A program made the position numbers and the translations under genes. 42,988 bases of DNA. It comes from a virus. Taxonomy: Duplodnaviria; Caudoviricetes. Of the stretch, positions 11,741 to 39,509 are shown piece after piece (position 1 is the stretch's first letter; the number at the start of each line of letters is the position of its first letter). The DNA lies in the IMG/VR virus record IMGVR_UViG_3300034151_000005, positions 1 through 42,988 of that record. One strand, 5' to 3'. The notes under the pieces are model-generated. The model saw only the letters and a list, made by a program, of their open reading frames with translations. It had not been told where the DNA came from and did no database searches.

Positions 11741-13219
11741 CACACGCGACACCTGACCCGGCGCCGCCTTCATCGCCTGCGTAATGGCATGAATGGCGCT
11801 CTCGACTTTCCCTGCACTACCAGACATCAGGGCGTCGGAGAGCTTATCTTTGAACGGGGCCGCCACGGTCGTGCGGAACCATGGCGACTGCATCGCTTGC
11901 GTGAGTTTCTTGCCGGCTGCCGCCCCGACGAGCGTCTTCGTGACGGTATCGCTGAACCCTTCGCCCTGCGAAAACCCGGTCATTCCGCCCATCGCCCCGG
12001 TCAGGTTGGACACGAGCCCGCCACTCTGCGCCTGCGTCCGCAGTTTGGTGGCATCAAGAACCTCCTTCAGCCCGAGCCAGAACGAGACTTCCTTATTGAG
12101 CGTGGCGATGTCGGGGCTGGCGTTGATCAGTTCACGGAACGCGCCCGACCCTTCGCGGAAGGCCCACCCCTTGGCCTTGTCCGTGGCCGAGGCCATCGCG
12201 TTCTGTCCAAACAGGCCCGCCTTATCCGCGATGTCATCCCATGCCTTTTTGATGTAGCGGGCCTGTTCAAGGGGGATGTCGTCACCGAGTTTTCCCACGA
12301 ACGTTTCGAGATCCTTCAGCCCCGCGATGACGACTTCGTGGCCAGGAATCGCCACCAAGTCCCCGCCTGGATCGAGGACATGAAACGACTCGCGCGCCGA
12401 CTTGAGCGTGTCGATGATGGGTTTGCCGGCGATGGTGTGTCCTTCGGCCGACGCGGCGGCATACGCCTGATCGAGCGCATCGCCCACGGCACCCACCTTT
12501 TGCTCTGCGAGCCCGAGCATGGCTTCGCGCGATCCCTTGATGCCACGCTTCAGCATCTCAGGGGCGAGCTTGGCGGCTTCCGACTTGGCCCACTCCTTTG
12601 TCGCCCCGAGCGCCTGTGCGACGTTCTTCTGTGCGCCGATCTTCAGTTTCCCGGCCGCTGTACCGACCATCCCGGCTCCGGGCAACACGGCCGACAGTCC
12701 AGCCGACGCGGCGGCGGCAGGGATCGATCCGGTCTGGAGGTACGTCAACCCGGCGTCCTTGGCCGCCATCGCGGCCTTGGCCTTGCTGGCACCAGGGATG
12801 GGCGCGAAAAACATGGCGGTGTCAGCGGCCAGTTTCCCGGTGGTCTGCATCGCGTTGGTCGGCTTGAGAGAGTCATCGGCCACATCCATGGCCTTCGCCG
12901 AAATGCCTGGGGTGCCGTACAGGGCGTCGGTGATCGTCGTCACGAAAGGCACCATCTGCGCAGCACGCCCAGCGCCGACGACAAGCTGCCCGGCGCTCTT
13001 GGCCAGCCCGGTATAGGCGTCAAGCGGGTTGTCGATGAACGCCTCTTTGGCGCTAAACCTCTGCGTGCCTGTCGGCTCAGGCGCTGCCGTCTTCGTTGTG
13101 GCGTCGACCGTCGGTTTGGCTTCCCCCTCAAGCATCGACGGATCGACCGTCTCGCCAATTTCGATTAACTCCGATGGATGGACCGTGCCGCCAATGGCGA
13201 CCTTACGCTGTGGCGGCAT
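11729..13219 (-). CDS. Ejection (DNA transfer/pilot) protein, gp16-like position
   Basis: Ala/Gly/Lys-rich helical protein, last in the ejection cluster; TGATG-coupled start. Confidence 0.65.
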   Translation of the reverse strand: MPPQRKVAIGGTVHPSELIEIGETVDPSMLEGEAKPTVDATTKTAAPEPTGTQRFSAKEAFIDNPLDAYTGLAKSAGQLVVGAGRAAQMVPFVTTITDALYGTPGISAKAMDVADDSLKPTNAMQTTGKLAADTAMFFAPIPGASKAKAAMAAKDAGLTYLQTGSIPAAAASAGLSAVLPGAGMVGTAAGKLKIGAQKNVAQALGATKEWAKSEAAKLAPEMLKRGIKGSREAMLGLAEQKVGAVGDALDQAYAAASAEGHTIAGKPIIDTLKSARESFHVLDPGGDLVAIPGHEVVIAGLKDLETFVGKLGDDIPLEQARYIKKAWDDIADKAGLFGQNAMASATDKAKGWAFREGSGAFRELINASPDIATLNKEVSFWLGLKEVLDATKLRTQAQSGGLVSNLTGAMGGMTGFSQGEGFSDTVTKTLVGAAAGKKLTQAMQSPWFRTTVAAPFKDKLSDALMSGSAGKVESAIHAITQAMKAAPGQVSRVLSQ

Positions 13220-14745
13220 CACTGCACCCGCTTCCATGATCCGTCAGGCTGTTGCTCGGCAATGCCGCCGCCCTTGATATTCATGCGCTTCGGAGCACCG
13301 CCGGCCGGCGTCTCGCCTTGTGGGACACGGCGTCCGGTCAACCGCTGCTGGTGGATGAACGCGGCCTTGTCGGTCTCAAGATTCTTGATGAGTTGGTCGG
13401 TCTTGTAAATGGCCGTCTCTGGGGTATCGCGCAACGTCGCGAGAATAGCCTTGTACTTGTTCTCGTCTTCCTTGCGGAGTACGCCCCCTTCAAGCGCCTT
13501 ACCGACCCGCTGCCGGACGAGGTCAATGTCGGCCTGCGCCTTGCGCGCGTCGGAATACGGGTTGAGTGCCGAGAGCCCAGCAATCGGCCCGAGATACCGC
13601 TCGTTCTTCTTCAGAATCTCACGCAGATCCACCAGCGACTGCATCGCCGAATCCGTGGCAGCGATCTGCTTGGCCGCACCTTCCGAGAGCGGACGCCCGA
13701 ACCCCGTGAACCCCCGTCGATGCAGTTCGCCTAGAATCTTGCCGCGATCGGTGGCCGTGAGCCGGTCATACTCGCCAGGGTTGGCGATCACGCCTTCGAT
13801 GAGGTCGCCACGGTCGGCACCGGCCGCACCGCCACTCTTCGCCTGTGCCGCAAGGCGATTGGCGTTCTGCTGGGAGATGGCGAGCCCGCGATCACCCTGT
13901 GCGAGCCGCGCGCCACGATACGCCTCTGTCGCTGCTGCGGTGCGGTCTTGGTTCGCGACCGTATCGGCGTGCACTTGCGCTTGCCGCTCGTTGTCGACCC
14001 GCTGGTCTGGCGTCATCCCTCGCGCAAGGGCATCGCGTGCGAACGTCGGCGACCACGGCCCGAACGACTCCACCACCTCTCGCGGTACCTGCTGTTGAAT
14101 CAGCCCAGCCGCAATGCGTTCCTTGTCCTCAGCATTGGTCGCCGTCGAGTACGCCATCGCCGCCGCGCGATGCCAGTCGCCTTTCACGAGGTATTCGAGC
14201 GACTTCGCCTCTTGCGCGTGCAATTTATCGGCGTCGAGGCCGATCTTCCAGATGTGCTCGACCGCCCGCGGGTCGAACTGCTGCGGCAGCAGCGGTTCCA
14301 TCTCAGGGTCATTCTTGATGGCCTGCGCCCGGATCGCTGGCCACAGTTCCGGCCTGGCCTTTGCGTATTCGATCAACCCAAGGTTCTGCTTCAGGGCCAG
14401 CGCTTCCTTTTCGTGTTCCGCCTTGGCCGCGTCGAAGTCCTTCTTGCGCTGGTCCGCCCACGCACTCCCGTACTTCTGCGCCGCGGACGGTGAGAGCCGC
14501 AGCAACCCGGCGTATACCTTGTCCGGTGCACCGCCCGTCTCCGCACCGAGGCGTTGGATCAGCGCATCATCGGCCAGCGCCCGCTCGCGCTGTTGCGCTT
14601 CCGCCGCATTCGCCCGTGCCATCGCGTCACGGTTGCGCGTCTCGGCTTCGAGCGCGGCGCGCTTATTCGCGCGCTCGCTCCAGTCCTCTTCGAGTGGCGG
14701 TAGCGACGCCTGCAACAGACGCGCGTCAGACGGGATGAGTGGCAT
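13219..14745 (-). CDS. Ejection protein, gp20-like position
   Basis: Ala/Gln-rich helical protein following the gp7-like gene. Confidence 0.65.
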   Translation of the reverse strand: MPLIPSDARLLQASLPPLEEDWSERANKRAALEAETRNRDAMARANAAEAQQRERALADDALIQRLGAETGGAPDKVYAGLLRLSPSAAQKYGSAWADQRKKDFDAAKAEHEKEALALKQNLGLIEYAKARPELWPAIRAQAIKNDPEMEPLLPQQFDPRAVEHIWKIGLDADKLHAQEAKSLEYLVKGDWHRAAAMAYSTATNAEDKERIAAGLIQQQVPREVVESFGPWSPTFARDALARGMTPDQRVDNERQAQVHADTVANQDRTAAATEAYRGARLAQGDRGLAISQQNANRLAAQAKSGGAAGADRGDLIEGVIANPGEYDRLTATDRGKILGELHRRGFTGFGRPLSEGAAKQIAATDSAMQSLVDLREILKKNERYLGPIAGLSALNPYSDARKAQADIDLVRQRVGKALEGGVLRKEDENKYKAILATLRDTPETAIYKTDQLIKNLETDKAAFIHQQRLTGRRVPQGETPAGGAPKRMNIKGGGIAEQQPDGSWKRVQ

Positions 14746-14747
14746 GG

Positions 14748-15896
14748 CTACAGGCCCCCACGGGTCCACGCCCCAGGATCGACTGGCGGCGTGCTACGTC
14801 GGTTGTACCAGTTGTTCGCGAACTGTCCGGCGATGTCGCCCAGGTTCGTGATGGTGTTCGCGTTCGCCTGTGCCCCGTATTGCGTCGCGACGCCTTGGCT
14901 GTTGCCGATGCCGATCTGCGCGTTGCCGACGTTGTCCGCGTAGCCGCTCGCGAGGTTCTGTGAGGCGTTCGTCGCGTTCAGTCCGAGGTTCGCCGTGCCG
15001 AGATAGCGGTTGTACTGGTTCATCTGCTCGCCGCTCATGAAATTGGCGGCCCCGAGCTTGCGGGCGTACTCGTTCATCTGCTCGCCGCTCATGAAGTTGG
15101 CGACCCCCGCGAGCCGGTTGTAGTTGTTGCTCTGCTCACCCGCGCGCCGGTTGTAACTGTTCTGGTACTCGGTCGACGCCAGGTCCTGCGCGTACCGCTG
15201 CATCGCCTTCGCCGCCCCGCCGGTCAAGAGCGTGCCGCGCGCCGCCGCACTGCGCGCGAGCGCCTTCGCGCCTTCGTCCATGCGGAAGCCGAACGACGGG
15301 TCATCAGTGATCGGCTTGCCCGCCATCGGGTCGCCGAGCAACGGCCCCACGGCGCCACGGTCGCGCATCACCATGTCGGCAAAGGCCCGGCCCTCTGGTG
15401 TGATGCCCTGCCCGCTCGCCCAGTTGGCGAACGCCTGCCCCTGGGGCGTGACCCCGACCCCGCTCAAGCCACCGAGCGTGCCACCCGCCCCGCCGTGCCC
15501 GCCGCCCTCGACCATCCAGCCCCACGACGCGCCCGGTGCCCCCGCGCCGACCATCGCGTCGATGGTGCGCCCGTCTGGCATCACGAGTTTGTCGAGGCGT
15601 GTCGGATGCTCGAGCAGCTTGATCACGCCCGCGCCGAACGTGCGGTCGATCTCCACCATCGCCGCCCGCATGCCGTCGTTGGTCGCCGGGTACTTTTCGA
15701 GGATGTCCTGCACCGCGCGATCGCTGACCTGCTGCCGCCCACCGGCCTGCTGCTGCTGTGGCGGTGCGCCCGGTGCCGGTGCGGCCGGAGGCGTGCCCAT
15801 GCTCGTGCCCCACGCCGTCGTGCCGCCGGACGCGCCAGGCGCCATCGGGCCGACGTTGGGCGGGCCCTGCTCATCAAACCAGTCTGCTGCAGCCAT
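14748..15896 (-). CDS. Ejection protein carrying the C-terminal half of a P22 gp7-like protein
   Basis: DPSFGFRMDEGAKALARSAAARGTLLTGGAAKAMQRYAQDLASTEYQNSYNR motif. Confidence 0.75.
   Translation of the reverse strand: MAAADWFDEQGPPNVGPMAPGASGGTTAWGTSMGTPPAAPAPGAPPQQQQAGGRQQVSDRAVQDILEKYPATNDGMRAAMVEIDRTFGAGVIKLLEHPTRLDKLVMPDGRTIDAMVGAGAPGASWGWMVEGGGHGGAGGTLGGLSGVGVTPQGQAFANWASGQGITPEGRAFADMVMRDRGAVGPLLGDPMAGKPITDDPSFGFRMDEGAKALARSAAARGTLLTGGAAKAMQRYAQDLASTEYQNSYNRRAGEQSNNYNRLAGVANFMSGEQMNEYARKLGAANFMSGEQMNQYNRYLGTANLGLNATNASQNLASGYADNVGNAQIGIGNSQGVATQYGAQANANTITNLGDIAGQFANNWYNRRSTPPVDPGAWTRGGL
15018..15095. repeat. Internal 54-nt-period repeat (ANFMSGEQMN twice)
   Basis: gttcatctgctcgccgctcatgaa occurs at ~15018 and ~15072. 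Confidence 0.8.
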
Positions 15897-16705
15897 TACC
15901 GCACCTCCGTTGCGCCGCGCTGGAGATAGAACGGCACATCACTGCGCGCCACTTGCCGTGAGACGCCCGTCGGCGACCGCAGCATCGACCCACCACCTCC
16001 GGCGAAGCCCCCGAGCTGCCGACCGCCGCCGTAGCCGCTCGTGCTCTGGAGTGCCGCGGTCGGGGCCTGCCCGAAGCCGAGGGCGCTTGTGGCCGTACTC
16101 CCGCCGCCGCCGAACATGCCACCGAAGGCGCCCGACAGGGCATTGCGGCCGCCGTTGCCCGCCATGATGCGCTGACCGAAACTCTGCGGCTGCGACTGAC
16201 CCATGCCGACTGCGCCGAGCGTGCCGCCTTGCGGGGGTGGCATGTAGGGAGCGCCTGGCGCCGGCACTGGATCCCCACCGCGTCGGAAGTCCTGCGTCGG
16301 GAGCGGGTAACTGCCGCCTTGGTCTGGCGTGGGTAGTACAGGACGTTCGATACCCCTGTGAATGGCATCCCACGGAAGATCCGTGCTCTGACCAGGCTGT
16401 ACTGGCTGGAGATTGTCGAACATCCCATCGTAGGGACTCTGGCCGATTGGGAGCGTTTCGTTGCCCCGTTGCCATGGTGTGTTTGGGTCGTTGCTACTCT
16501 TGCTCCAGCCATCCGGCCCGAAAATGAATGCAGGCGAGTACGCGCGTGTATCACTGCCGCCGACATCGCCGCCCGTGCGGACGTCCATCGTCGGCAACTG
16601 CGACGTGCCGCCCTTCATGCGCGCATTCAGGTCGCGAGGCGCATAGCCCGACTCAATCGGCGCGATGCTGCCGCCGGGAATGCCCTGCTCATCGAACCAG
16701 CTCAC
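15896..16705 (-). CDS. Low-complexity Gly/Pro/Gln-rich ejection-cluster protein (269 aa)
   Basis: GTGA-coupled start (VSWFDEQG...); TAATG-coupled to the next gene. Confidence 0.7.
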   Translation of the reverse strand: MSWFDEQGIPGGSIAPIESGYAPRDLNARMKGGTSQLPTMDVRTGGDVGGSDTRAYSPAFIFGPDGWSKSSNDPNTPWQRGNETLPIGQSPYDGMFDNLQPVQPGQSTDLPWDAIHRGIERPVLPTPDQGGSYPLPTQDFRRGGDPVPAPGAPYMPPPQGGTLGAVGMGQSQPQSFGQRIMAGNGGRNALSGAFGGMFGGGGSTATSALGFGQAPTAALQSTSGYGGGRQLGGFAGGGGSMLRSPTGVSRQVARSDVPFYLQRGATEVR

Positions 16706-17376
16706 AGCACACCGCCGACCGGCTGTCCGTTGAAGCCGATGATCTGCGCGCCCTTGGCGGCATAGAACGGCGCCTGCTCGCGCGGCACCCACGACGCCTG
16801 CCCGGTCGGCGCGCGCATCTGCACCATCCCGCCACCGGCCATCCCGCCGAGCGTGTTGTAGCCACTCGCGTTCGACTGCGCGGCCTGTGTGTGCGGTGTG
16901 CCGCTCTGATTGCGCGGAACGGCCGTGCCCGTCGGCTGCTGCGCGGGCGTGCCGGGCGTCCGCACGCCCAGCCCCTGCTGCGTCGCCGCCGGCAGTGACC
17001 CGACCTGCAGGTCATCGGACGGAATGCCCCCCGCCGACATCCCGACCGGCGCCGGCATCCCCCCGGACGACGCCCCGAACGACGCCGGCAACCCCATGAA
17101 CGAGCCGAGCGCACTCATCGCGGCCCCGCCCGTCTGCGTATAGGGCTGATAGGCTTGCGTCGTCGCCTTCGCGGCCTGCTGCTGGGTCGCGATGGCCTTA
17201 TTGGCCGCCGCTTCCTGTTGGCCGGCGGCTTTCTGCGCGCCTTCCTTCTTGACGTCGTTGGCAATCATGCCCATCCCGGCCGGCACCAGTGCGAGACTCG
17301 CCCCGCCCGTCGGAATCGCCGCCGCCACGCCGCCGATCGCCATCGCGGCCCCGCCTAATTTCGTCCAGAAGCCCAC
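16702..17376 (-). CDS. Ejection protein carrying the N-terminal half of a gp7-like protein
   Basis: Gly/Ala hydrophobic N-terminus, then AQKAAGQQEAAANKAIATQQQ...YQPYTQTGGAAMSALGSFMGL. Confidence 0.7.
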   Translation of the reverse strand: MGFWTKLGGAAMAIGGVAAAIPTGGASLALVPAGMGMIANDVKKEGAQKAAGQQEAAANKAIATQQQAAKATTQAYQPYTQTGGAAMSALGSFMGLPASFGASSGGMPAPVGMSAGGIPSDDLQVGSLPAATQQGLGVRTPGTPAQQPTGTAVPRNQSGTPHTQAAQSNASGYNTLGGMAGGGMVQMRAPTGQASWVPREQAPFYAAKGAQIIGFNGQPVGGVL

Positions 17377-17390
17377 TGTCGTACCCTCCG

Positions 17391-18044
17391 TTACCCGAGA
17401 AACGTACAGCTACCGCCGCCACCACCGCCCGAGGACGGTTCCAGAATCACAATCGCCATGGACGCCCATGTCACCGTGCCGCTTGTGGTCCACGTCGGCG
17501 TATATGTCCCAGCGCCAGACGCCACTTGGTTGATGAGGCTGTGCGTGTAGTTCGAGGCATACGTCTCGTACTCCCCTGAGAGTGCCCATCCGCCAGCCTG
17601 TGCAATCGTCGCGGTGCCCGCGTACGTCACAATGCCAAGGACGAGCGCGCCATCTGGCACCAATGGCTGCGTGACCGCCGGGCCTGTGTTAATACCGCGT
17701 CCCCATGATGGCAACGGCAGACCAGCCACATCCGAGGCCCCAGTAAACTCCGTCACCGTCATCGACACGAAGGTCAATCCGGTAATCGCCACCGTACAGG
17801 CGCCCGTGGCCGTCGCGATGCCCCACGCGATGTAGGTGTGAACATCAGACGCATTCACAAGCTGTAAATTGATCTGCGCCCACGACGTCGGGGCTCCGGA
17901 TCCAGTCGCACTGATGGTCAATAGCGGTCCAGCGCCAGCGATGCCAACCACGAGTAATGACCCGATGGTGACGTTGTTCGGGTACGCATTGCTCAGCGTG
18001 CCGGAGACGGTGTTGCGCTGCGCGGTGACTTCAGCGATGGCCAT
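17391..18044 (-). CDS. Virion fibre-associated beta-rich protein
   Basis: Thr/Ser/Gly/Val-rich; coupled to the upstream fibre gene. Confidence 0.6.
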   Translation of the reverse strand: MAIAEVTAQRNTVSGTLSNAYPNNVTIGSLLVVGIAGAGPLLTISATGSGAPTSWAQINLQLVNASDVHTYIAWGIATATGACTVAITGLTFVSMTVTEFTGASDVAGLPLPSWGRGINTGPAVTQPLVPDGALVLGIVTYAGTATIAQAGGWALSGEYETYASNYTHSLINQVASGAGTYTPTWTTSGTVTWASMAIVILEPSSGGGGGGSCTFLG

Positions 18045-19159
18045 TACGGCGTCACCTCGATCTGCAACGTCACGCGCGTAATGGTCGCTGGCGTGCCGAC
18101 GATCTCGAAGCCGAAGACGTCACCCGCCGTGACCGCCGTGGTCCAGCCGGTCAGCGTGCTATCGGTCGCGCTATCAGCGCCAGAGAGCAACGGCGGGGCG
18201 CTCGCAACAATACTGGTCGTCGGCGGGTACGAACCGAACGCATCGAGGAACACGTCGAACTCGACATCACCCGCGGGTTTCGCGAGCAGCGTCCACTTCG
18301 TGATGGTGCCGCTAATCGGACACTGAATCGTGCCCTTGTCGCCCACGGTCACGACGGTGGCGCCATTGTCGACCGTCACGCCAGGCGTCTTGATGCCGCT
18401 CGCCGCCGTGGCCGAGGCGATGACTTGGGCGATGGTCTGCCCGCCATCCTGAATCAGTTTCCCAGTGGCGCCGTCAAAGGTGGCAATGCGGTCATCGGTC
18501 GCGCTCGCCGGGCCGACGACGTCGCCGCTGGAACTCCCAGAGGCCGAGAGCACCTGACTCGTCATCGTCAGCCCGGAGCCGAGCGTAATTTCCTGGTAGT
18601 CACCCGCGCCACTCGCCGACCCACGCCCGAGCAACCGTGAGGCCGCCGACGCCTGCGCGAGGTTCGACAGCGGCAAGTCGCCCGTGACTTCGCTCGTGAG
18701 ATTGACCGGACCCGCCGTGCCATACACGCCAGACGTCACGCGCACGATGCCGGTGCCGGTCGCCCGCTTCAGGAGCTTGCCGCTCGTGAGGTCGTACAGG
18801 GCAATCTCGCCGTCGACCGACGCGGCGGGCCCGTCCACATCGCCACAGGCGAACACCGCCGCCGCGATGACGTCTCCGATGGTCTGCCCGCCGTCCTGGA
18901 GCAGCTTGCCGGTGATGCCGTCGAACGTCGCGATGCGGTCATCCACGGACGACGCAGGACCGACGACGTCCCCCGTGCCGCCATTGGCCACGAGCACCCA
19001 CACCGCGCCATCCCACGCATAGACGGCGCTCGTGTCCGTCTCGAAGAAGAAGTACCCCGGATCGGGCCCGACAATCGGCACTGGCGGGTCCGGCACGAAC
19101 GCCACGCGCTCGGCAGCCGTGCCGCTCGCAACGAAGGCGTTGAGGGTGGTGTCAGACAA
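18044..19159 (-). CDS. Tail fibre-like protein with GDVxGPAS..D..IA.FD..TGKL repeats
   Basis: Three copies of the repeat; N-terminal FFETDT..YAWDG..W module. Confidence 0.7.
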   Translation of the reverse strand: MSDTTLNAFVASGTAAERVAFVPDPPVPIVGPDPGYFFFETDTSAVYAWDGAVWVLVANGGTGDVVGPASSVDDRIATFDGITGKLLQDGGQTIGDVIAAAVFACGDVDGPAASVDGEIALYDLTSGKLLKRATGTGIVRVTSGVYGTAGPVNLTSEVTGDLPLSNLAQASAASRLLGRGSASGAGDYQEITLGSGLTMTSQVLSASGSSSGDVVGPASATDDRIATFDGATGKLIQDGGQTIAQVIASATAASGIKTPGVTVDNGATVVTVGDKGTIQCPISGTITKWTLLAKPAGDVEFDVFLDAFGSYPPTTSIVASAPPLLSGADSATDSTLTGWTTAVTAGDVFGFEIVGTPATITRVTLQIEVTP

Positions 19160-19174
19160 AACACACGCTCCCGG

Positions 19175-19519
19175 TCATGGGGTGAAACTCACGAAGATCG
19201 GCGATCCTGCGCCGTCAGACACGAACTGGAGCGGCTCCACGCCGAGCGAGAGCGGCACCCACGACGTCCCGACACCCGCCGCATGCCACCGTATGACGTT
19301 CGGCACCGTGAGGTCCACGTCGACCGTCGCCGAGTCGGTGGCCACGCGCGCATTGGGGAGGCCGCTATCGGGCGCCCCGAGGATGTACTCCCCGTTCCCC
19401 GGCGCCACCCCGCCCCCGCTGCCAGCCGTCGTCAACGTCGCGAGGTACTGATACCAGGGCGTCGTGACGCGGCCTTGGGGGTCGGTGATCGGATGCGCGA
19501 TGTTGGGGATATTCGACAT
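19175..19519 (-). CDS. Tail needle/plug-position protein (gp26-like position, 114 aa)
   Basis: PITDPQGRVTTPWYQYL N-terminal motif, typical of the gene after gp10 homologues; TGATG-coupled. Confidence 0.55.
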   Translation of the reverse strand: MSNIPNIAHPITDPQGRVTTPWYQYLATLTTAGSGGGVAPGNGEYILGAPDSGLPNARVATDSATVDVDLTVPNVIRWHAAGVGTSWVPLSLGVEPLQFVSDGAGSPIFVSFTP

Positions 19520-20562
19520 CAGTGCAAGCCCTTCTCGACTTTCAGGAATGCGCCCAAGAGGTTCCACGCCACCGGGTCGCTGACGACCACCTCATACACT
19601 CGGTCCCGCGAGCGCCCAAGCCGCCGCCAGATCGCCCGCCGTGTGTATTCCCCCATCTTCCCCGCCGACACATGCACCTCGTTGCTCCACGTCTCGCCGC
19701 CATCATCGGACCACCGCAGCATCACCGTGGGGTTGCTGCCCTGCCCTGAGACGATCCCGACGCCCGTCTCGAGGTCGACCTGCATCTCGTGGTGGAAGAT
19801 CCATCGGTCCTCATCGCTAATCGCCGCCGACCGTCGCATCCGGCGGGTGAGCAGCGACTCCAGCGTAAACGTGACAACCGCGGCCGAATAATCGAGTTCG
19901 GCCGGGAAGCCCGTGATGGTGTACGCACCCGGCTCCGCGACGGGACTGAAGAACAGCAAGTCTGCGGCAACGCCCGTCAGTTCGTAGGCGCCTACCTCTG
20001 TCCCCAGCACGTACCCGACGAGCGTCGGTGCGTCGGCTCCTGTAACCGTGTACGCCCCTGGCTCCGTCTCCAGTTCGTACACGTTGATCGCGACGAGGTC
20101 CGCCGGGCTCCCCGTGACGACATACGCCCCGCCGACCGTCTCGAGCACGCGCCCAACGAACAGCCCCGCACTACTTCCAGCGATGACGTACGCCCCGGGC
20201 TCCGCGACCATTGGATGCCCGACGCTGAGGTCGGCCGCGCTCCCTGCGATGGCATACGTGCCGACGTCCGTCGAGAGCACGCGCGCCGACAACAGATCCG
20301 CCGCACTACCCGTGATGGTGTAGCTACCCGCCGCCCCATCCAACACACGACCGACGAGTAAGTCGGCCGCACTGCCCGCCACCGCATACGTCCCGACATC
20401 CGTCGGCAGTTCAAACGCCCCGCCCCCACACGTCCCACTGTGCTCAAGGAGGAAGAACCCGCCATCCTCCACCAGCAACACATCGCCGGTTTCCAGCAAC
20501 AACCGCGCACAGCTCGCCGGGTCGCCGCCATCCAGGTTATTGAGGATGTACGGGAGAAGCAC
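19519..20562 (-). CDS. Fusion: LLLExG motif, eight ~22-aa GxYx[IVL][TA]G repeats, gp10-like C-terminal module (copy 2)
   Basis: C-terminus QVDLETGVG...PTVMLRWSDDGGETWSNE...GKMGEYTRRAIWRRLGRSRDRVYEVVVSDPV. Confidence 0.8.
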   Translation of the reverse strand: MLLPYILNNLDGGDPASCARLLLETGDVLLVEDGGFFLLEHSGTCGGGAFELPTDVGTYAVAGSAADLLVGRVLDGAAGSYTITGSAADLLSARVLSTDVGTYAIAGSAADLSVGHPMVAEPGAYVIAGSSAGLFVGRVLETVGGAYVVTGSPADLVAINVYELETEPGAYTVTGADAPTLVGYVLGTEVGAYELTGVAADLLFFSPVAEPGAYTITGFPAELDYSAAVVTFTLESLLTRRMRRSAAISDEDRWIFHHEMQVDLETGVGIVSGQGSNPTVMLRWSDDGGETWSNEVHVSAGKMGEYTRRAIWRRLGRSRDRVYEVVVSDPVAWNLLGAFLKVEKGLH

Positions 20563-24579: not shown

Positions 24580-26166
24580 CTAGGTGCCGTTCCCCGGCGT
24601 GACATCGAGATACGCTGCGGCAAGGAACCAGGCCACAGGATCGCTGACTACCACTTCAAACGTCCGCATGCGCGCACGGCCCGTCTGCCGTACGATGACG
24701 CGCGTCTTGCGCGCCCCTTGCCGCCCTGCCGTGGTCCAGTGCTCGTTCGACCACGTATGCCCGCCGTCGTTGCTCCACCGCACCATCACCTGCGGGTCTT
24801 CGCCCTGGCCATCGGTGAGCCCCACACCGGCCTGCAAGTCGACCTGGAACTTGTCGTACGTCAACCACTGGTGCTCGTCGGTGAGATGCGAGGCACGACG
24901 CAGCCGACGCGTCATCAGCGTGACCGTCGACACCCCGGACGGAATCGGTTCCGGTTCCGGTGTCGGCCCGACACGCGCGGCCAACCCCCAATACAAGCGC
25001 CCAAGACCCGGAGCCGGATCAGTGCTGGGGAGCACATGCAGGACAATCGTCTGCCCACTGACGAACGATTCCGACAGGCCGTCAATCAGCCCGAAGGTGT
25101 CCGCGTCGGCAATGGTCACGACGGCGGTCGTATTCGCCAGCGACCGCTGGATCGTGTGCACCCAATTCGAGCCAGGAAAGAACGGGGGATCGGCCCGTTC
25201 GACCGCCAACCCTGTGACGGTGAGCCCTGATGCCGAAATCGGGGTGAGTGCGCGCAGTGGCCCGACGGCCAACTGCTCACTGCTCATCCATACCCACGAT
25301 TCGTTCAGGTTGTCCACCACATTGTTGTTTCCACCGCAACACATGAACCCGCCATCAATGTCCGGCAGATACCCGACACCGACGGCCACATGCGCGTTAT
25401 GCGGGCCATTGATGCCCGTGCGATAGATGACGATGTCGACCCGCTGCCCGAGCGTAATCGGGAGCGCGAACGTGCTCGTGGCCACCGTGTCGTCGCCCGT
25501 CAACACACACGTCGTGTCGACCGTGCCGCCCGTCCCGTCCTGCAAGACGCCATTCACGAAGGCCCAGGCGGTATACGCCGAGATGCCCATCGTCTGATTG
25601 AAGCATTTCAGCATGAGCGTGGTCATGGTGCCGTCCAGCGCCGCCAGCGAATAGAACAGGCTATTAAACGTCGTGCCTGGAATGTATTCTTGCCGCGCGC
25701 CGTTATTGAACGCCCCTCCGTATGTCCCGGCATTGGCCACATAGCCAGTCGACCCGGATGTGATGCCGTAAATATTGCCCACGCCCTCGCGCTCGATACA
25801 GAACGACAAGTCCTGGCCGGGATACCCTGGCCCTTGATAGTGGTAATTGATGTCCTGACCCGCCGCGACGAACACATCCGCGCCGATCGACACCGCGAGC
25901 GATTCGCCAGCCGGAAGCACCGCCACTTGGTCCGTGGGCGCGCCATCCACGTACAGCGTCGCCGTCACGTCGCTGGGGAATGGCAGGCTCGGCGCCAGGA
26001 TCGTCAGATTCCGAAACGTGCTATCGAACGCCACGGGCGCTTGTGTGAACGTGATGCCGAACGTTGTCGCAATCGAGATGTCGCCTTCGCCGCCCAACAC
26101 GCCAATATTCGAGACGGCTCCGCCCCAGCCGGCGTTAAACGCGGCTTTTGGCAGCAGTTGGATCAC
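24580..26166 (-). CDS. Fusion: ~400-aa beta-rich region, PEPEP linker, gp10-like C-terminal module (copy 1)
   Basis: C-terminus FQVDLQAGVG...PQVMVRWSNDGGHTWSNEHW..AGRQGARKTRVIVRQTGRARMRTFEVVVSDPV; GTGA-coupled start. Confidence 0.8.
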   Translation of the reverse strand: MIQLLPKAAFNAGWGGAVSNIGVLGGEGDISIATTFGITFTQAPVAFDSTFRNLTILAPSLPFPSDVTATLYVDGAPTDQVAVLPAGESLAVSIGADVFVAAGQDINYHYQGPGYPGQDLSFCIEREGVGNIYGITSGSTGYVANAGTYGGAFNNGARQEYIPGTTFNSLFYSLAALDGTMTTLMLKCFNQTMGISAYTAWAFVNGVLQDGTGGTVDTTCVLTGDDTVATSTFALPITLGQRVDIVIYRTGINGPHNAHVAVGVGYLPDIDGGFMCCGGNNNVVDNLNESWVWMSSEQLAVGPLRALTPISASGLTVTGLAVERADPPFFPGSNWVHTIQRSLANTTAVVTIADADTFGLIDGLSESFVSGQTIVLHVLPSTDPAPGLGRLYWGLAARVGPTPEPEPIPSGVSTVTLMTRRLRRASHLTDEHQWLTYDKFQVDLQAGVGLTDGQGEDPQVMVRWSNDGGHTWSNEHWTTAGRQGARKTRVIVRQTGRARMRTFEVVVSDPVAWFLAAAYLDVTPGNGT

Positions 26167-28862
26167 ACCGCCACCTCGAAGACATAGATCATCGGACGCC
26201 CAGGACTCCCGCCGTTGCGCCCGTCGCGGTCACCCTTCACCACATACAGCCGGTTCGTCGTCGCATCGAACCACGACCCGTCAATCTTGTACGCATCGTC
26301 TTCCCACTCCGCCGAGCCCGCAAAGTACGTCTCGGCCATGTCGGCGACGTACGTTTCCTGCAACTCCCACGGCTGGATGTCGCCGTTCGCGCTGTCGATG
26401 AACTCCTGCGGGTCGTAAATCAGGAGATGATTCCGCATGCTGCTCGACTGGTCGCCAGGCGTCGAGTCGGCCTTGCGGACGTCGCTCTGGCCATGGCAGC
26501 ACGGCCCCGGCCCGTACCATTGGTGCACGACGGGATAGGTGTCGCTCGGGACGTTGATGCGCGCGAAGAAGCACACGCCGTACTTGGTGCCGACGTCGAT
26601 CCACACCCCGGCAAAGCAGGCATCCAGGTACCAGACGTTCGGGACCTCAATCACCCACGAGCCATTGGCGCAGTCGTACGGGGGAATGCCGGGATCATTG
26701 GTCCCCGGTGTGCTGCCCCAGCCGCAATACCGATAGTCGTCCGCGTCGGTATACCGCGCTTTTTTGTTCGAGATGCTGTGAAACAGTGTATCGAGCGTGT
26801 CGATGCTCCACCGTGGCTGCGCGCCGGTCGGCCCGTTTGGCGCAGACTCACCCGGCACCGTCTCGAGCGCGTCGGCGGGCCGCGTCAGGTAGTCGGCGAC
26901 GAACGCGGCGGGTTGGAGGACGGGGCCCCACGGGGCCGTGGCATTGCCGCTCGTGGTCGACGCCCCGAGGCCTAACGTGCGCCCGCCAAAGTGCGCGTCC
27001 GCGATGGCTTGGGGGATCGCCATCATGTAGCCGCCCGTGCGCTTGCTGCCCGTCCGGGTGCGCCAGTGGCCATACTTCGTGAGCGTACCCGCGTCGTCAT
27101 CGAGGACGGCCATCCCGATGCTCGGGTCATTCCATCCGCTGACGTTGTACCGTGCGCCGTAGGCGTACCACACGGCGTTGCGGCTCTCGTCCCACAGAAT
27201 GCCGGCCATCACGGAGCCGTTGGTGTCCACGATGGGCCGAATCCCCGCCGACATCGCGCCCCAATTCTTGATCAGCGTGGCATACGGCGCCGTGTTCGGG
27301 TTGGTCGTCCACGATCCTTCGGACGGGATGGTCAGTTCATAGAGCTGATAGCCGTTGTAGCCGTTCGAGGGTGCGTCGCCCGTGCCGGTCATGAGCAACC
27401 GCAGTTCGCCGTCCACGTACCGGCCCGTAATGCTGCCGCGCTGGTAGAAGAAGCCCCACGAGTCGCCTGCGCCCGTGTCCGGTGGCGCGGCGAACATGCC
27501 CAAATAGGTGAAGTCTTCCGGCGTCAGCAGCAACGGGTCGACGTCATTGACCGCGGCGGACCCCGTGACCGCATAGCTGCCGGCGGAGGTCGCGAAGGCA
27601 TAATCGGACTGCGCCGACTCGGCCGCGCTCCCAGTCGTGGCGTAGCTGCCCGCCGACGCCAACAGGAAGTACTCAGCCGGTTCGGGCTCCGGGTCAGGAA
27701 TCGGCACGCCAGGCGTCACACCCGTGACCACCACCGTATCGCCCGCGAGCCCCAACTGGAGGTCGTAGATGGCACCCGAGGTGCGGTCACCCACCAGATG
27801 CGCCCCGAAGGCGTACGTGTGGCACCGCCCGAGGTGCGGCTGCCAATCGAGCTTGATGGCATCCCACATCGCGCGCTCGTGCCACTCCCGCGTCGCCGCG
27901 TCGTAGACCCACGTCGTTGCGAAGCCGCGCACGGTCTCGAGGTCGGGCACGTACAGCACATAGAAGGTGTGCCCCTCTTGCTGGTACGTCCACGCAATCG
28001 CGTCATCGATGCGGTGGGCCTGTCCGAGCGCGAACTCCACCGCATGCGTCGACACCCGTTCGGGCGTGTACCCGTTCGCACGCCAGACGATGCGGTCTCC
28101 GCTCACCCCGGAGCCGAGCCACATGATCGCGTTATCGAACGGCACCGCGGTAAACGCCGCCCCGCAGCCCTGCTCGATCTTGACGCCCGGCACCGGCTGA
28201 TAGGGCACGTCCGCGTCGCCCGTGTTCGACCACACCGACGTGGTCTGCGACCCAAACAGCCACAAGTCGCGATGGCTCTCCACGAGCGCGACGACCTGAT
28301 CGGCTACCGTCGACACCTGAAACACGTCGAGCGCGTCCCAGTCGGTGCCGTCGTAGAGCGCGGAGATCTGGAACTCGTTGGAGTTCGCGCGCAAGGCGAT
28401 GAAGTAGCCATCGCTGAATGTCGCCATCCGGGTCGGCCGTGTCGGGCCCCCGATGCCGTCATCGGGCAGCAGGATGAACGTATTCAGCGCGAGGTCGAAC
28501 AGGAAGTCGTTGCCGGCCGACGTGACGAGCAGCTGATTGCCGTTGGTGCCGTTGCTGCTGATGGTCGCCGGGAAGGCGTTGGCGTTGACCAACCCACGCA
28601 ACGTCGCCGTATGGTTGGCGAAGATCTCGTAAAAGCCGGTGCCCACGACCGTAAACGCCCGCCCGTCCATGGAGAACAGCGCGCGCACTGGCCCATCGGC
28701 GAGGACCACGAACGGCGCGAGGCCAGGGGTTGGCGCGAGCCAGGGCGTCGCCTTGGGCGTGCCGCCGACGTTCTCCAAGTACCAATTGATCGTCCGCTCA
28801 GCATTGACGTTGATGGAGCGGACGCGCCCGGACGGGCCAATGAAGCCGGGGTACTTGGCCAT
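26163..28862 (-). CDS. Fusion: P22 gp10-like tail hub N-terminal ~375 aa, linker with two repeats, ~460-aa putative receptor-binding domain (899 aa)
   Basis: Start at TAATG 28862 (MAKYPGFIGPS...RTINWY...PTPGL...DGYF...LWLFG...W.NTG...YQQEGHTFYVL...TWVYD....WHER...HLVGD); lacks the gp10 C-terminal module. Confidence 0.85.
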   Translation of the reverse strand: MAKYPGFIGPSGRVRSINVNAERTINWYLENVGGTPKATPWLAPTPGLAPFVVLADGPVRALFSMDGRAFTVVGTGFYEIFANHTATLRGLVNANAFPATISSNGTNGNQLLVTSAGNDFLFDLALNTFILLPDDGIGGPTRPTRMATFSDGYFIALRANSNEFQISALYDGTDWDALDVFQVSTVADQVVALVESHRDLWLFGSQTTSVWSNTGDADVPYQPVPGVKIEQGCGAAFTAVPFDNAIMWLGSGVSGDRIVWRANGYTPERVSTHAVEFALGQAHRIDDAIAWTYQQEGHTFYVLYVPDLETVRGFATTWVYDAATREWHERAMWDAIKLDWQPHLGRCHTYAFGAHLVGDRTSGAIYDLQLGLAGDTVVVTGVTPGVPIPDPEPEPAEYFLLASAGSYATTGSAAESAQSDYAFATSAGSYAVTGSAAVNDVDPLLLTPEDFTYLGMFAAPPDTGAGDSWGFFYQRGSITGRYVDGELRLLMTGTGDAPSNGYNGYQLYELTIPSEGSWTTNPNTAPYATLIKNWGAMSAGIRPIVDTNGSVMAGILWDESRNAVWYAYGARYNVSGWNDPSIGMAVLDDDAGTLTKYGHWRTRTGSKRTGGYMMAIPQAIADAHFGGRTLGLGASTTSGNATAPWGPVLQPAAFVADYLTRPADALETVPGESAPNGPTGAQPRWSIDTLDTLFHSISNKKARYTDADDYRYCGWGSTPGTNDPGIPPYDCANGSWVIEVPNVWYLDACFAGVWIDVGTKYGVCFFARINVPSDTYPVVHQWYGPGPCCHGQSDVRKADSTPGDQSSSMRNHLLIYDPQEFIDSANGDIQPWELQETYVADMAETYFAGSAEWEDDAYKIDGSWFDATTNRLYVVKGDRDGRNGGSPGRPMIYVFEVAV

Positions 28863-29605
28863 TACTGGTCCGTGTTGATGTTGTAGCCGTACCGGCCGGT
28901 GTGTGGCAGCAGACCCGGATCGAAGCCGAGATCCATCATCGGCACATTGAGCCGCTTGATGTCGCCAAGCGCATCCGAGGCGCCCATCGCGATCTCCGCC
29001 GTGAGCGCTTTGCCGTACTCGGGCGCCAGCATCTTCGCGAGGTTGTACCGGAGCGCCGTCACGTAGCCTGGGGCCATCACGTAGGAGGTCGTCAACGCGG
29101 CGAACTGCGCGAGCGCCTGTGGCGCATACACGATGACCGGGTTGATGGCGGTATTGGGCACCGGCCAGAACGAGAACGTGCCCGAGGGCATCGTCGCCTC
29201 GTAGTACACGGCGGTCGGCTGTGAGTTCTCCAGCGTCTTCTGCTGGATCGCCTGATACGCCATCTCCGTCAGCGCCCCGAGCGGTAGCTCCGTCTCCGGC
29301 GTCGCATACGAGAGCAGCAATGTCACGAGGTCGACCGACTCCGGCCGCGCGCCGATCCAGTCCGGCGTGGGTACGGTGCCCGTCGGGCCAATGGTGTAGG
29401 TCGCCTGACCTGCGACAAGGTCGTACTGCGACCGCGAGACGACCTGCATCGTCAACCGCTGCGTCGCCCAACTGTCGACCATCTCGTTCAGCCGGTCGAA
29501 CGCCTCCAGCATTTCGGCTGACGACGGCTCTTCGCCCTGCGCGGTGACGCCGAGCAGCCGCATAGTGCCGACGATGAGCGAGCGTGCCGTGACGGTGCGG
29601 GCCAT
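28862..29605 (-). CDS. Head-to-tail adaptor (P22 gp4-like position)
   Basis: TARSLI...LLGV..QGE.P...LNEMVDSW...ALRYNLA..LAPEYG; directly upstream of the gp10-like gene. Confidence 0.8.
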   Translation of the reverse strand: MARTVTARSLIVGTMRLLGVTAQGEEPSSAEMLEAFDRLNEMVDSWATQRLTMQVVSRSQYDLVAGQATYTIGPTGTVPTPDWIGARPESVDLVTLLLSYATPETELPLGALTEMAYQAIQQKTLENSQPTAVYYEATMPSGTFSFWPVPNTAINPVIVYAPQALAQFAALTTSYVMAPGYVTALRYNLAKMLAPEYGKALTAEIAMGASDALGDIKRLNVPMMDLGFDPGLLPHTGRYGYNINTDQ

Positions 29606-29608
29606 GGC

Positions 29609-29857
29609 TTATCGCTGGTACAGAGCCACCATGAGCGTCGGGACGGTGCTGGCGTCGTTGACGCGCTTCGCCTTCACCGGCAGGATGCCGCCGGCAATCG
29701 CGGTAAACGGCACGAGGATGCCGTCTTCGCGTACCACGACCACGACGCCCGCCGTGCCGACGTAAATAGCATCGCACACGCCATCAGGGAAGTTGACGGT
29801 GTCGCTCTTCGTGATGGTGGCGTAGTAGTTGAAGTTCTGGAGGACTTGCGACATCAC
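29609..29857 (-). CDS. Head spike base protein, RcGTA Rcc01079-like
   Basis: ITKSD...AIYVGTAG.V.V...G..V.F...GGILPV...RV pattern; 82 aa. Confidence 0.7.
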   Translation of the reverse strand: MMSQVLQNFNYYATITKSDTVNFPDGVCDAIYVGTAGVVVVVREDGILVPFTAIAGGILPVKAKRVNDASTVPTLMVALYQR

Positions 29858-37470: not shown

Positions 37471-37764
37471 CTAGTGTCCGTCGGCCACAGCACGGCTGTC
37501 AAGCGACGCCAGCTCGGCGACGATATGCGCCAGCGCATCGTAGGGCTTCAGCATCCCCGCGTTGACATCCCGCACCGCGGCCGCCATCACCGACCGGAGG
37601 GCCCGGTACTCCTGCACTTCGCGGGCGAGCGATTCGATCTCGTCGCCGTTGATGTATGGCCCGAACTCACTGCCATCAGCGTCCCGCACGCGCCAGCCTT
37701 CAATGTCGCCAATGACATCGGTCAAGAGCGCCACCTGTGCGTCGGTCAGTGTCACGCCATCCAT
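37471..37764 (-). CDS. Hypothetical protein between TerL and portal
   Basis: 97-aa ORF overlapping the TerL-C end. Confidence 0.55.
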   Translation of the reverse strand: MDGVTLTDAQVALLTDVIGDIEGWRVRDADGSEFGPYINGDEIESLAREVQEYRALRSVMAAAVRDVNAGMLKPYDALAHIVAELASLDSRAVADGH

Positions 37765-38483
37765 CCACTGCCCCCATGAAACGCCTGCGTGGGATTGTAC
37801 GGCTTCGGCACCGGCTTGGTGCGTGCCCGATCCAGCCCGCTCACGACCAAGTAGCGCGTCGCGTCCTGCAAGTGGTCGTGCTCCTTCACAATCCGCCCGC
37901 GCTCGTCGCGCCGATACAACCGGTACTCGTCAAACCACGGCCCGCATGACGCGAACACCTTCAGTTTCCCCGCCGACAGCCGCTCCCACACCCGCTGGAT
38001 CCCAGCCTCGACGGCCTTGTCTGGCAGTTCCACGTCAATCCCGAGGTCACCGTAGATCTGCATGAACGAGCGCCCATCGTAGGCGTTAATCGCCGCCGCA
38101 TCGCCCACCCCGCGGATCCACTCCCCGCGCGCCTTCACGGCCTCGGCATGGACCGGCGGCTCGACCTGGCCCCGCTTGTACACGCTGTAGATGTAGAGCA
38201 CGTCGACGTCCCGATCCCAGGCGCCCCACACGGCAGCCGTCCACTCCCAGCCGGTATCCATGCCAAATGCGCGCGGCCAGTGCGTCGGGATCTCGAAGTC
38301 CGACACCTTCACATCGTCTTCGCTGACTTGATAGATGGCGCCAGAGCCGAGTTGCGGGATGCCCTTGGACCGTGCGTCTCGCTGATACGGCGGGATGCTC
38401 GCCCACAGCGAGTCCCGCATGTCCATCGTGAGATGCGGCGCGTCATCCCAGGTCGCCGTGACTACGTATCGAGACACGGCCAT
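37752..38483 (-). CDS. terL: Terminase large subunit, C-terminal (nuclease) fragment
   Basis: WDDAPHL...RDARSKGIPQLGSGAIY...FGMDTGW...DHLQDATRY; AGGA RBS. Confidence 0.88.
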   Translation of the reverse strand: MAVSRYVVTATWDDAPHLTMDMRDSLWASIPPYQRDARSKGIPQLGSGAIYQVSEDDVKVSDFEIPTHWPRAFGMDTGWEWTAAVWGAWDRDVDVLYIYSVYKRGQVEPPVHAEAVKARGEWIRGVGDAAAINAYDGRSFMQIYGDLGIDVELPDKAVEAGIQRVWERLSAGKLKVFASCGPWFDEYRLYRRDERGRIVKEHDHLQDATRYLVVSGLDRARTKPVPKPYNPTQAFHGGSGWMA

Positions 38484-38674
38484 TCCTGGGGCGGTGGTCG
38501 AGTCGTACCGCGTGGCACCTTCAGCTTAAGCGCCTTCCCGCAATACGGGCAGAACCGATAACCGTGCTCGGCCGGCGTGCCCACATCCCACGCGATGTTG
38601 CGCTGATCGCATCCGGTGAAATACGTGTCGCCTTCTAAGTAGTCGGAGTCATAGGTCCACTCGCATTCAGTCAT
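38462..38674 (-). CDS. Small zinc-ribbon protein between the TerL halves (70 aa)
   Basis: MTECEW...GC...FCPYCGK. Confidence 0.65.
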   Translation of the reverse strand: MTECEWTYDSDYLEGDTYFTGCDQRNIAWDVGTPAEHGYRFCPYCGKALKLKVPRGTTRPPPQEWPCLDT

Positions 38675-38715
38675 GCGGCTTCTCCATGGATGCGCCCACC
38701 GGGCAGGAACGACAC
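38671..38715 (-). repeat. Orphan duplicate of the last 15 codons of TerL-N (copy of 38826-38870)
   Basis: Encodes the same SFLPGGRIHGEAA*; the three internal differences are all synonymous. Confidence 0.9.
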
Positions 38716-38718
38716 GGC

Positions 38719-38829
38719 TTATCTCGCCTGCATCCAGTAGGCCGCCAGCAGCAAGCCACCCACCACGACGATGAGCGTCCAGATCGTGCTGATATGGCGC
38801 TCGCGCTCGCGCTGTTCCCACGGGGTCAT
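38719..38829 (-). CDS. 36-aa single-TM protein between the TerL halves
   Basis: MTPWEQRERERHISTIWTLIVVVGGLLLAAYWMQAR; ATGA-coupled to the TerL-N stop. Confidence 0.65.
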   Translation of the reverse strand: MTPWEQRERERHISTIWTLIVVVGGLLLAAYWMQAR

Positions 38830-39509
38830 GCGGCTTCCCCATGAATGCGCCCACCAGGCAGGAACGACAGCACGAGCGGCGTCAGTCCCATTAAGGGTGT
38901 GAACGTCATCGCGATCATCCCACCGCCGACCATCGTCCGTAGCAGACACTCGGTGTAGATGTCCTCAGGCGGCTCTTCGTCGAGGTGGATCATGTCCTGC
39001 TCGGTGCCCTGGAACGCCTCTCGCCTCTGGTCGTACGACTTGAGCTGTAACACCGACAGCCCGCCCGTGATGTGGCGCACGTACACGCTCTCGATGGCGT
39101 CAGGCAGCCCCGCCTTCGCGGTCTTGCGCTCAATGAGGTGCTCGGGGATGAAGCCGGTCCCCTCTTCGCCTGGCCGCCCGAGGTACGCCTTCTGCAAGAT
39201 GTCGCGCGTGGTCTTGCCGGTATCGCCTGCGGCCCACATGGACACCGGCTTGTCGAAGCGCCGGCCATCCCACCACGGCGCGAAGTAGTCGTACATGCCG
39301 GTCAGGTGAAGCGCGCACTCGTACGCCGCGCACTGCGTCTTGCCCACGCGGTTGGCCGCAATCATCAGGCGCTCGCGATGGTCCTTGCCGGCGCGCATGA
39401 ACGCGCGGTGCTTGTCGTAGCCGTCCCACGAGTACGTCAGGAGTGGGTACGCAAGGCGACGCTCCACCTGCTCGAGCAGCGCGATGTCGTCGTCTCGCGT
39501 CTCGAGCAT
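38826..39509 (-). CDS. terL: Terminase large subunit, N-terminal (ATPase) fragment
   Basis: Walker A AANRVGKT, Walker B IHLDEEPP, coupling motif TFTP; ends GEAA*. Confidence 0.9.
   Translation of the reverse strand: MLETRDDDIALLEQVERRLAYPLLTYSWDGYDKHRAFMRAGKDHRERLMIAANRVGKTQCAAYECALHLTGMYDYFAPWWDGRRFDKPVSMWAAGDTGKTTRDILQKAYLGRPGEEGTGFIPEHLIERKTAKAGLPDAIESVYVRHITGGLSVLQLKSYDQRREAFQGTEQDMIHLDEEPPEDIYTECLLRTMVGGGMIAMTFTPLMGLTPLVLSFLPGGRIHGEAA

Follow-up and report, generated by a model that had tools for sequence, protein, structure and literature searches.

Can a phage DNA ejection protein of the P22 gp7 type be made from two separately encoded chains, and if so, what would hold those chains together? 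This question is raised by IMGVR_UViG_3300034151_000005, a complete virus record of 42,988 bp in IMG/VR with direct terminal repeats, the whole of which is referred to here as the window. On its minus strand, which holds nearly all of its genes, lie three consecutive open reading frames (ORFs), designated A, B and C (Table 1). An initial annotation had placed the N-terminal half of a gp7-like protein in A and the C-terminal half in C, with B as a third ORF between them. Our favoured explanation, to which sequence comparison leads us to give about an even chance, is that the two arms of a P22 gp7-like protein are encoded by A and C as separate, translationally coupled genes, and that a pair of motifs facing each other across the gene boundary would act as a non-covalent clasp re-joining them.

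Two parts of a gp7-like protein

The gp7 family of P22 is the functional analogue of gp14 of T7. Scans against PHROGs aligned A with positions 11-77, and C with positions 85-207, of the 'DNA ejection' family phrog_598, which is the division that had been proposed. P22 gp7 (residues 1-228) itself covers positions 1-232 of this family (E 2e-95), so that profile positions correspond approximately to P22 residue numbers. Therefore, A and C hold complementary, non-overlapping parts of one gp7 family. Moreover, a hidden Markov model (HMM) of the A-family N-terminus matches the unsplit form L068 (E 8e-4), and tblastn with C finds the genes annotated 'DNA ejection' in the cultured phages P26218 and VvAW1. 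Alignment of both halves to P22 gp7 itself, also anticipated by the initial annotation, was obtained for C, residues 287-324 of which align with gp7 residues 133-167, but not for A, whose family gave no significant match by hhalign.

Rhodoferax phage P26218 (246 aa), Vibrio phage VvAW1 (228 aa) and L068 have gp7 unsplit, at lengths of 228-260 aa. The window does not have this one-chain, fold-back form of ~230 aa; the parts are found in separate ORFs with B between them, and the locus is therefore a split variant rather than a canonical phrog_598 member. PHROGs gave no family for B, none of the three ORFs matched a Pfam family at E up to 0.01, and searches of PDB sequences with the A and C profiles returned nothing below E 0.05.

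According to a preprint on P22 infection intermediates (bioRxiv 10.64898/2026.09.03.749273), each gp7* doubles back on itself and so contributes two of the helices in a 24-helix bundle. A 'fingertip' made of residues 90-126 occupies the wedge that separates subunits of the gp10 hub, the C-terminal arms pass into the outer membrane, and the subunits work as inner/outer pairs. Set against this account through the profile mapping, the break at gp7 positions ~77/85 falls immediately before the fingertip. A is then the outgoing arm, and C the fingertip plus the returning arm, of the gp7 hairpin. From the profile positions we infer that the best-conserved stretch of C, ..RSAAA[KR]GTLLTGG.., sits where the fingertip is expected.

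The facing terminal motifs

The initial annotation also described the same architecture at both junctions, and this was recovered in full: in six-frame translations of the window each motif occurs exactly twice, at the places named. By regular expression, WFDEQG is found only at the starts of B and C, and [AS]PTG..PFY and PFY..[KR]GA are confined to the C-termini of A and B, which share MRAPTG..V..PFY..[KR]GA. Motif HMMs built from relatives, without B, were also run against 8067 ORF fragments and matched B at its C-terminus (E 1.1e-8) and at its N-terminus (E 0.0014). The match of both to B is far beyond chance.

All 18 relatives of A (~200 aa) end ..GGLVQMRAPTGQTxWVPRxQAPFYAQRGAVEV. A itself runs 14 residues further (QIIGFNGQPVGGVL) than ..RGAVEV, where 16 of the 18 stop. 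When 21 more distant sequences and B were added, giving an alignment of 41 A-family C-termini (A3), P190, G192 and G209 remained invariant, with V185, A189, V197 and A210 nearly so, and the family-wide element of ~30 aa reads V.[LM]RAP.G....VP......[YF]...GA..V. From its hydrophobic N-terminus, ORF A runs through a long helix and a disordered linker to the mini-domain at its C-terminus. In its AlphaFold2 model (41 sequences) the helix spans residues 31-75 with a predicted local distance difference test (pLDDT) score of 80-90, and the mini-domain (181-213, pLDDT 86-96) is strand-strand-helix-strand, with strands at 184-188, 194-198 and 211-213 and the helix at 199-207. When the 41 A3 members were searched in Pfam at E up to 10, no family was common to more than 2 of them, and no listed family was named a docking domain; an Atlas search with A 170-224 gave no usable match. 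The mini-domain may resemble half of a swapped-hairpin dimer of the SpoVT/AbrB-like type; Pfam gave no match, and the alignments from a wide fold search with the A model were confined to its long helix.

The N-terminal motif, (D/S)WFxxQG at the start of the second protein, is likewise kept among relatives of C. A W-led, DWF[DAGST][EQ]QG-like word lies within the first 18 residues in 22 of the 22 full-length relatives (35-69% identity), and W6 was still invariant once 14 more distant sequences had been added (37 aligned). AlphaFold2 modelled C from these 37 sequences with a short helix on this WF motif (pLDDT ~67) and helices at 196-367. Between the two lies an alpha/beta domain, placed before the gp7 fingertip, in which H97, D102 and D113 are invariant (23 sequences). 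The best Foldseek hit of the C model in the PDB had E 0.91, and the alpha/beta domain had no PDB match. Wide fold searches aligned generic helices only (Z ≤6.7 for the C model, ≤5.9 for the A model), the alpha/beta domain and the mini-domain being barely covered. Residues 266-301 of C contain an 18-residue tandem duplication (..ANFMSGEQMNEYARKLGA ANFMSGEQMNQYNRYLGT..) that is present in none of the aligned relatives.

A scan of viral contigs for WFDEQG returned 51 stretches, all of them in proteins without relation to this family (HNH endonuclease tails and terminases, for example). One of these proteins, L026 (494 aa, virion module, ending ..VPKNQTAQYKGHTITSDGQGHWFDEQGKEVTE), had the look of a fused form and was dropped, as BLASTP against A and C was not significant. 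Viral contigs scanned with C or with B as single proteins gave no match.

A search of viral contigs with the C-family alignment gave 41 loci, of which 36 were distinct after 5 duplicates had been dropped. In 24 of the 41, the ORF preceding the gp7 C-half gene is matched at its C-terminal end by the C-terminal motif HMM, and in 22 of these 24 at most six residues follow the motif. Typical upstream proteins end, directly before the stop, in VLLRAPTGQTKAVPADQVDYYLARGATRG or VTLQAPTGEMRKVPRGMVQQYVSRGARVING, and the next gene starts in the manner of MADDWFTAQG, MSWFDTN or MGWFDDN. Both motifs are present in 16-18 of the 36 distinct loci, the C-terminal motif only in 3-5, the WF motif only in 2 and neither in 13 (Fisher p 5e-4 to 2e-5, uncorrected for phylogeny). 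The pair is thus found across one and the same gene boundary in many distant viral loci. By eye, the upstream protein has a diverged hairpin-helix end in the 2 WF-only loci, and the first protein ends in a similar pattern in four of the loci with neither motif (L071, L086, L090 and L093).

The junctions themselves take several forms among the loci, either an in-frame stop followed by ATG or an ATGA or GTGA overlap, and the second gene lies in frame 0, +1 or +2 relative to the first. The WF motif begins between 2 and 53 residues from the start codon. Across 22 loci the invariant P and G each use four codons, and the A before P uses three. No slippery heptamer (X XXY YYZ) is present at either junction of the window, and an open frame common to the motif and the gp7 C-half exists in 0 of the 24 loci; a fused form was not observed. 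Taken together, the varying frames, the lack of slippery sites and the synonymous codon changes mark the pair as a protein-level feature of separately translated genes. An RNA-level coupling element was rejected on the same varying frames and on the range of distances of the WF motif from the start.

In the window the TGA stop of A and the GTG start of B overlap as GTGA, and the TAA stop of B overlaps the ATG of C as TAATG, with GGAGGTG 6 nt upstream. A longer annotated B ORF, starting at 16792, is probably not used by the phage; the GTGA start directly before S-WFDEQG recurs in a relative (L102). The A-B-C DNA is 100% identical in two further metagenome assemblies (L098 and L101), so that the stops are not errors of one assembly.

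The middle gene and its surroundings

ORF B, most of which is rich in Gly, Pro and Gln, has two ends that resemble the types of its two neighbours. Residues 1-32 share 63% identity with the first 28 residues of a C-type protein (P0015; E 4e-9), residues 46-78 match the N-terminal extension of another C-type relative (P0019; E 2e-7), and residues 242-268 share 56% identity with the C-terminus of an A-type protein (P0096; E 3e-7). By these matches, B is a mosaic, C-type at its N-terminus and A-type at its C-terminus. Between A and C there thus stands a C-head with an A-tail attached, which is exactly what a duplication across the A/C junction would yield, and the mosaic points to such an origin for B. 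The G+C content at third codon positions (GC3) is 0.74 in B, lowest in its first half, against 0.88 in A and C.

An exhaustive search of 1.84 billion representatives yielded one relative of B (P0112, 271 aa, E 8.7e-20), which carries both motifs, starting MAAGNWFDEQG and ending MMRAPNGVSRQVPRMHVPFYAQRGATEIR. A word-indexed search found no relative of near-equal length, and the alignment of B and P0112 matched nothing in a metagenome scan. Middle ORFs are present elsewhere. In L102, a 54%-identical relative, a 105-aa ORF lies between the A-type and C-type genes with the same GTGA overlap; it starts VSWFAQQQ and ends VEMRGPDGSTRRVPAQDVRKYQALGAEVVG, where the C-terminal motif HMM matches with E 4.5e-7. 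The middle ORFs of L100 and L099 are B-like and have LPTMDFRTGGD in common. By eye, that of L063 has a MALYP start copied from its C-type neighbour and half a motif at its end, and that of L056 is without a motif. Variable middle proteins with both motifs are found repeatedly (B, P0112 and the L102 ORF), in line with the extra cargo suggested in the initial annotation; the middle ORFs of L100, L056 and, judged partly by eye, L063 lack one or both. With middle ORFs in several loci, the junction is a recurrent site of gene gain, at which both motifs are often, but not always, kept.

PHROG scans identify a P22-like podovirus structural module in the window, in the order terminase, portal, scaffold, major head protein, pieces of a gp10-like 'head closure Hc3' protein, tail-fibre-like genes, A-B-C, and lysis and recombination genes. 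A tail-fibre-like gene lies upstream of A-B-C, and two genes of 516 and 502 aa, neither with a PHROG or Pfam match, lie downstream. The 516-aa gene is gp20-like by position only; by eye, its MPxDPSIPL-type N-terminal start is common to relatives. Directly upstream of A is a 217-aa ORF with no family and with a GC3 of 0.71, low as in B and unlike its neighbours. An Rfam scan of the whole window gave 0 matches.

Other genes of the window are divided too. The large terminase lies in two ORFs, an ATPase part and a nuclease part; between them is a 130-aa ORF with a CPYCG zinc-ribbon-like word, and there is no Rfam intron in the window. The gp10-like hub family phrog_578 is also divided by PHROG scan: its positions 14-362 lie within a 1204-aa protein, and positions 372-472 are found twice, at the C-terminal ends of the next gene and of a third one ~4 kb downstream. 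The partner of the gp7 fingertip is thus likewise unusual here. As to hosts, split-gene relatives were found on metagenome contigs binned with Burkholderiales, Vicinamibacterales and Gemmatimonadaceae genomes (L104, L105 and L106, the last a weak match), and this binning hints at soil bacteria as hosts of the wider group.

Table 1. Positions of the A-B-C genes, their matched regions and motifs, and other features of the window.
Feature	Position	Strand	Remarks
ORF A	16702-17376	-	224 aa, GTG start; first half-protein
ORF B	15896-16705	-	269 aa, GTG start; middle gene
ORF C	14748-15896	-	382 aa, ATG start; second half-protein
A residues 31-97	17086-17286	-	phrog_598 match, E 7.3e-6; N-terminal arm of gp7 hairpin
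C residues 195-361	14814-15314	-	phrog_598 match, E 1.9e-15; by position, fingertip and returning arm
A C-terminal motif, residues 183-213	16738-16830	-	VQMRAPTGQASWVPREQAPFYAAKGAQII
A C-terminal extra residues	16705-16746	-	14 residues
B N-terminal WFDEQG	16682-16699	-	conserved stretch runs on as IPGGSIAPIESGYAP
B C-terminal motif	15899-15985	-	MLRSPTGVSRQVARSDVPFYLQRGATEVR
C N-terminal WFDEQG	15864-15881	-	regular expression
C alpha/beta domain, residues 55-130	15507-15734	-	conserved, pLDDT >90 (AlphaFold2); no family or fold match
C tandem duplication	~14994-15101	-	residues 266-301
Gene downstream of C	13219-14769	-	516 aa
ORF directly upstream of A	17391-18044	-	217 aa
Tail-fibre-like gene	18044-19159		upstream of A-B-C
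phrog_578-related genes	19519-20562, 24580-26166, 26163-29777	-	PHROG scan
Large terminase, nuclease part	37752-38483	-	
ORF between terminase parts	38462-38854	-	130 aa
Large terminase, ATPase part	38826-39509	-	

Explanations and known systems

In the explanation we favour, the mini-domain and the WF peptide would bind each other, or jointly form the hub-proximal tip, and A and C would thereby rebuild the gp7 hairpin. Duplication of the junction would have given rise to B, which may sit as an extra link between A and C. We read the motif pair as the mark of an old fission site in the gp7 hairpin, adjoining the hub-binding fingertip. Four considerations suggest a clasp. The pair goes with split forms, and the unsplit forms examined lack it; the motifs sit tight at facing termini; coupled translation would free the first C-terminus beside the emerging N-terminus of the next protein; and the ends left by the cut must come together if the packing of A and C is that of the two gp7 helices.

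Several points weigh on the other side. No result here shows the two motifs touching, and packing within the helical bundle could by itself hold the hairpin helices together, with no need of a clasp. Complex prediction with C 1-140 and A 165-224, both with alignments, scored 0.12 and 0.11 (mark 0.32), which we count neither way. The PHROG match of A is modest (26.8 bits). The co-occurrence counts are phylogenetically non-independent, and pairing is not obligatory, with 3-5 of the 36 loci having the C-terminal motif without WF (for example L089 and L084). The WF motif can be as far as 53 residues from the start (L064), and in L100/L099 a WF-bearing C-type gene directly follows one whose protein ends GYGRRY and lacks the C-terminal motif. 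Lastly, codon bias in the middle of B is weak (GC3 ~0.62-0.65 across 16301-16750) and part of it may be little constrained.

A broader proposal is that the mini-domain and DWFxxQG constitute a portable two-part docking code, by which a large group of uncultured podoviruses would build part of the gp7 channel from separately made and separately ejected chains, the tip being an evolvable slot for proteins such as B. Any protein with both ends might then be spliced into the chain. We advance this tentatively and give it well under an even chance.

The first alternative to a clasp is that each motif binds a third component, be it the gp10-like hub, the portal barrel or the gp20-like protein, and that the ends face each other only because both emerge at the hub-proximal tip; B would then supply extra copies of two hub- or portal-binding elements. 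The break does adjoin the fingertip, which contacts gp10 in P22. Moreover, the mini-domain is modelled by AlphaFold2 as an autonomous fold and is more widespread than WF, with diverged hairpin-helix ends seen by eye in L071, L086, L090 and L093, where there is no WF downstream. However, unsplit gp7 must also bind hub and portal, yet the unsplit forms L068-70 are without the motif pair (HMM and regular expression), as are those of P22, P26218 and VvAW1, judged by their length of 228-246 aa. Furthermore, 16-18 of the 18-20 WF-bearing loci have the C-terminal motif upstream. We regard binding to a third component as the main rival to a clasp, though rather unlikely.

Less probable again is that the mini-domain is a self-association module, pairing neighbouring copies of A, and B with A, and that WF is an unrelated processing or capsid-targeting signal, the two being linked by descent from one insertion. 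The inner/outer pairing of gp7* subunits in P22 would suit such a module, as would the possible resemblance of the mini-domain to half of a swapped-hairpin dimer, and the P22 record, in which a host protease removes the N-terminal 20 residues of gp7, shows that terminal signals exist in the family. This explanation leaves the tight co-occurrence of the motifs across the boundary unaccounted for, the Pfam search of the A3 members at E up to 10 gave it no support, and no processing of C was seen in this analysis.

It is more doubtful still that the motifs are relics of a once contiguous, long gp7 insertion, kept by local folding or inertia, with B a neutral by-product of duplication. The low GC3 and poorly conserved middle of B, and the loss of motifs from some middle ORFs (L100 and L056), are what relics would give. 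Outside the gp7 core, however, the motifs are the best conserved elements, down to ~30% overall identity; their invariant residues are retained through synonymous change, and a contiguous unsplit form with the motifs was found in 0 of the 24 loci.

Lastly, a reading of the three ORFs as one polyprotein, made by frameshift or by read-through of the stops, or of the stops as assembly errors or signs of gene decay, would fit the consecutive order of A, B and C with a shift of -1 at each junction, and the in-frame stop between the two genes in five distant loci, but is very improbable given that there is no slippery heptamer, that junction frames are 0, +1 or +2 among relatives, that starts overlap as GTGA, ATGA or TAATG with a strong ribosome-binding site, that the same DNA is found in three assemblies and that the two-gene form is kept in dozens of loci.

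A literature search, conducted largely without full texts, turned up no account of gp7 genes that are split, nor of these motifs, including 'WFDEQG'. The exit of gp7-type proteins and the first, hub-attached section of their channel have only recently been seen at near-atomic detail, in P22. A natural and widespread split form, with conserved additions at its cut ends and with extra link proteins tolerated, is a ready test of the contacts that hold the gp7 channel structure. It is also relevant to the question of whether an ejection protein has to travel as one chain. Should the motifs bind each other, they would constitute a small natural pair of phage protein connectors.

The closest known system is P22 gp7 itself, which shares with the locus its sequence family, here with its arms divided over A and C; the gene order, after the tail genes and before two large genes, would fit as well. 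Known members are single chains of 228-246 aa (PMC8954989 among the sources), whereas here the chain is cut before the fingertip, with ~590 residues added between the halves, including the conserved alpha/beta domain. The cut ends bear the conserved motif pair and a third gene fills the gap.

The initial annotation saw in the motifs putative docking modules that would chain ejected proteins head-to-tail and set an ejection order, and likened them to the docking domains of polyketide synthases (PKS). With these and their non-ribosomal peptide synthetase (NRPS) counterparts the locus shares only the logic of placement, a short C-terminal element then a short N-terminal one, encoded in order. The likeness stands for placement but not for sequence, since neither the Pfam scan of A, B and C nor that of the A3 members found any such relation; moreover, these are virion proteins rather than enzymes and the binding here is putative. 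Split inteins are alike in having a broken gene with conserved elements at the first C-terminus and the second N-terminus. A split intein was rejected here, as Pfam found no intein or Hint family and no Cys, Ser or Thr nucleophile is conserved at the motif borders (22 C relatives and 18 A relatives), and the elements here measure ~30 and 7 residues. Natural gene fission in which the fragments come together again, as in split proteins or operon-coupled co-translational assembly, is alike in its adjacent, coupled genes, its complementary parts and the conserved elements at the new termini. Here, the termini have gained dedicated elements that are absent from the unsplit family, and the junction appears to have been duplicated to give a middle protein.

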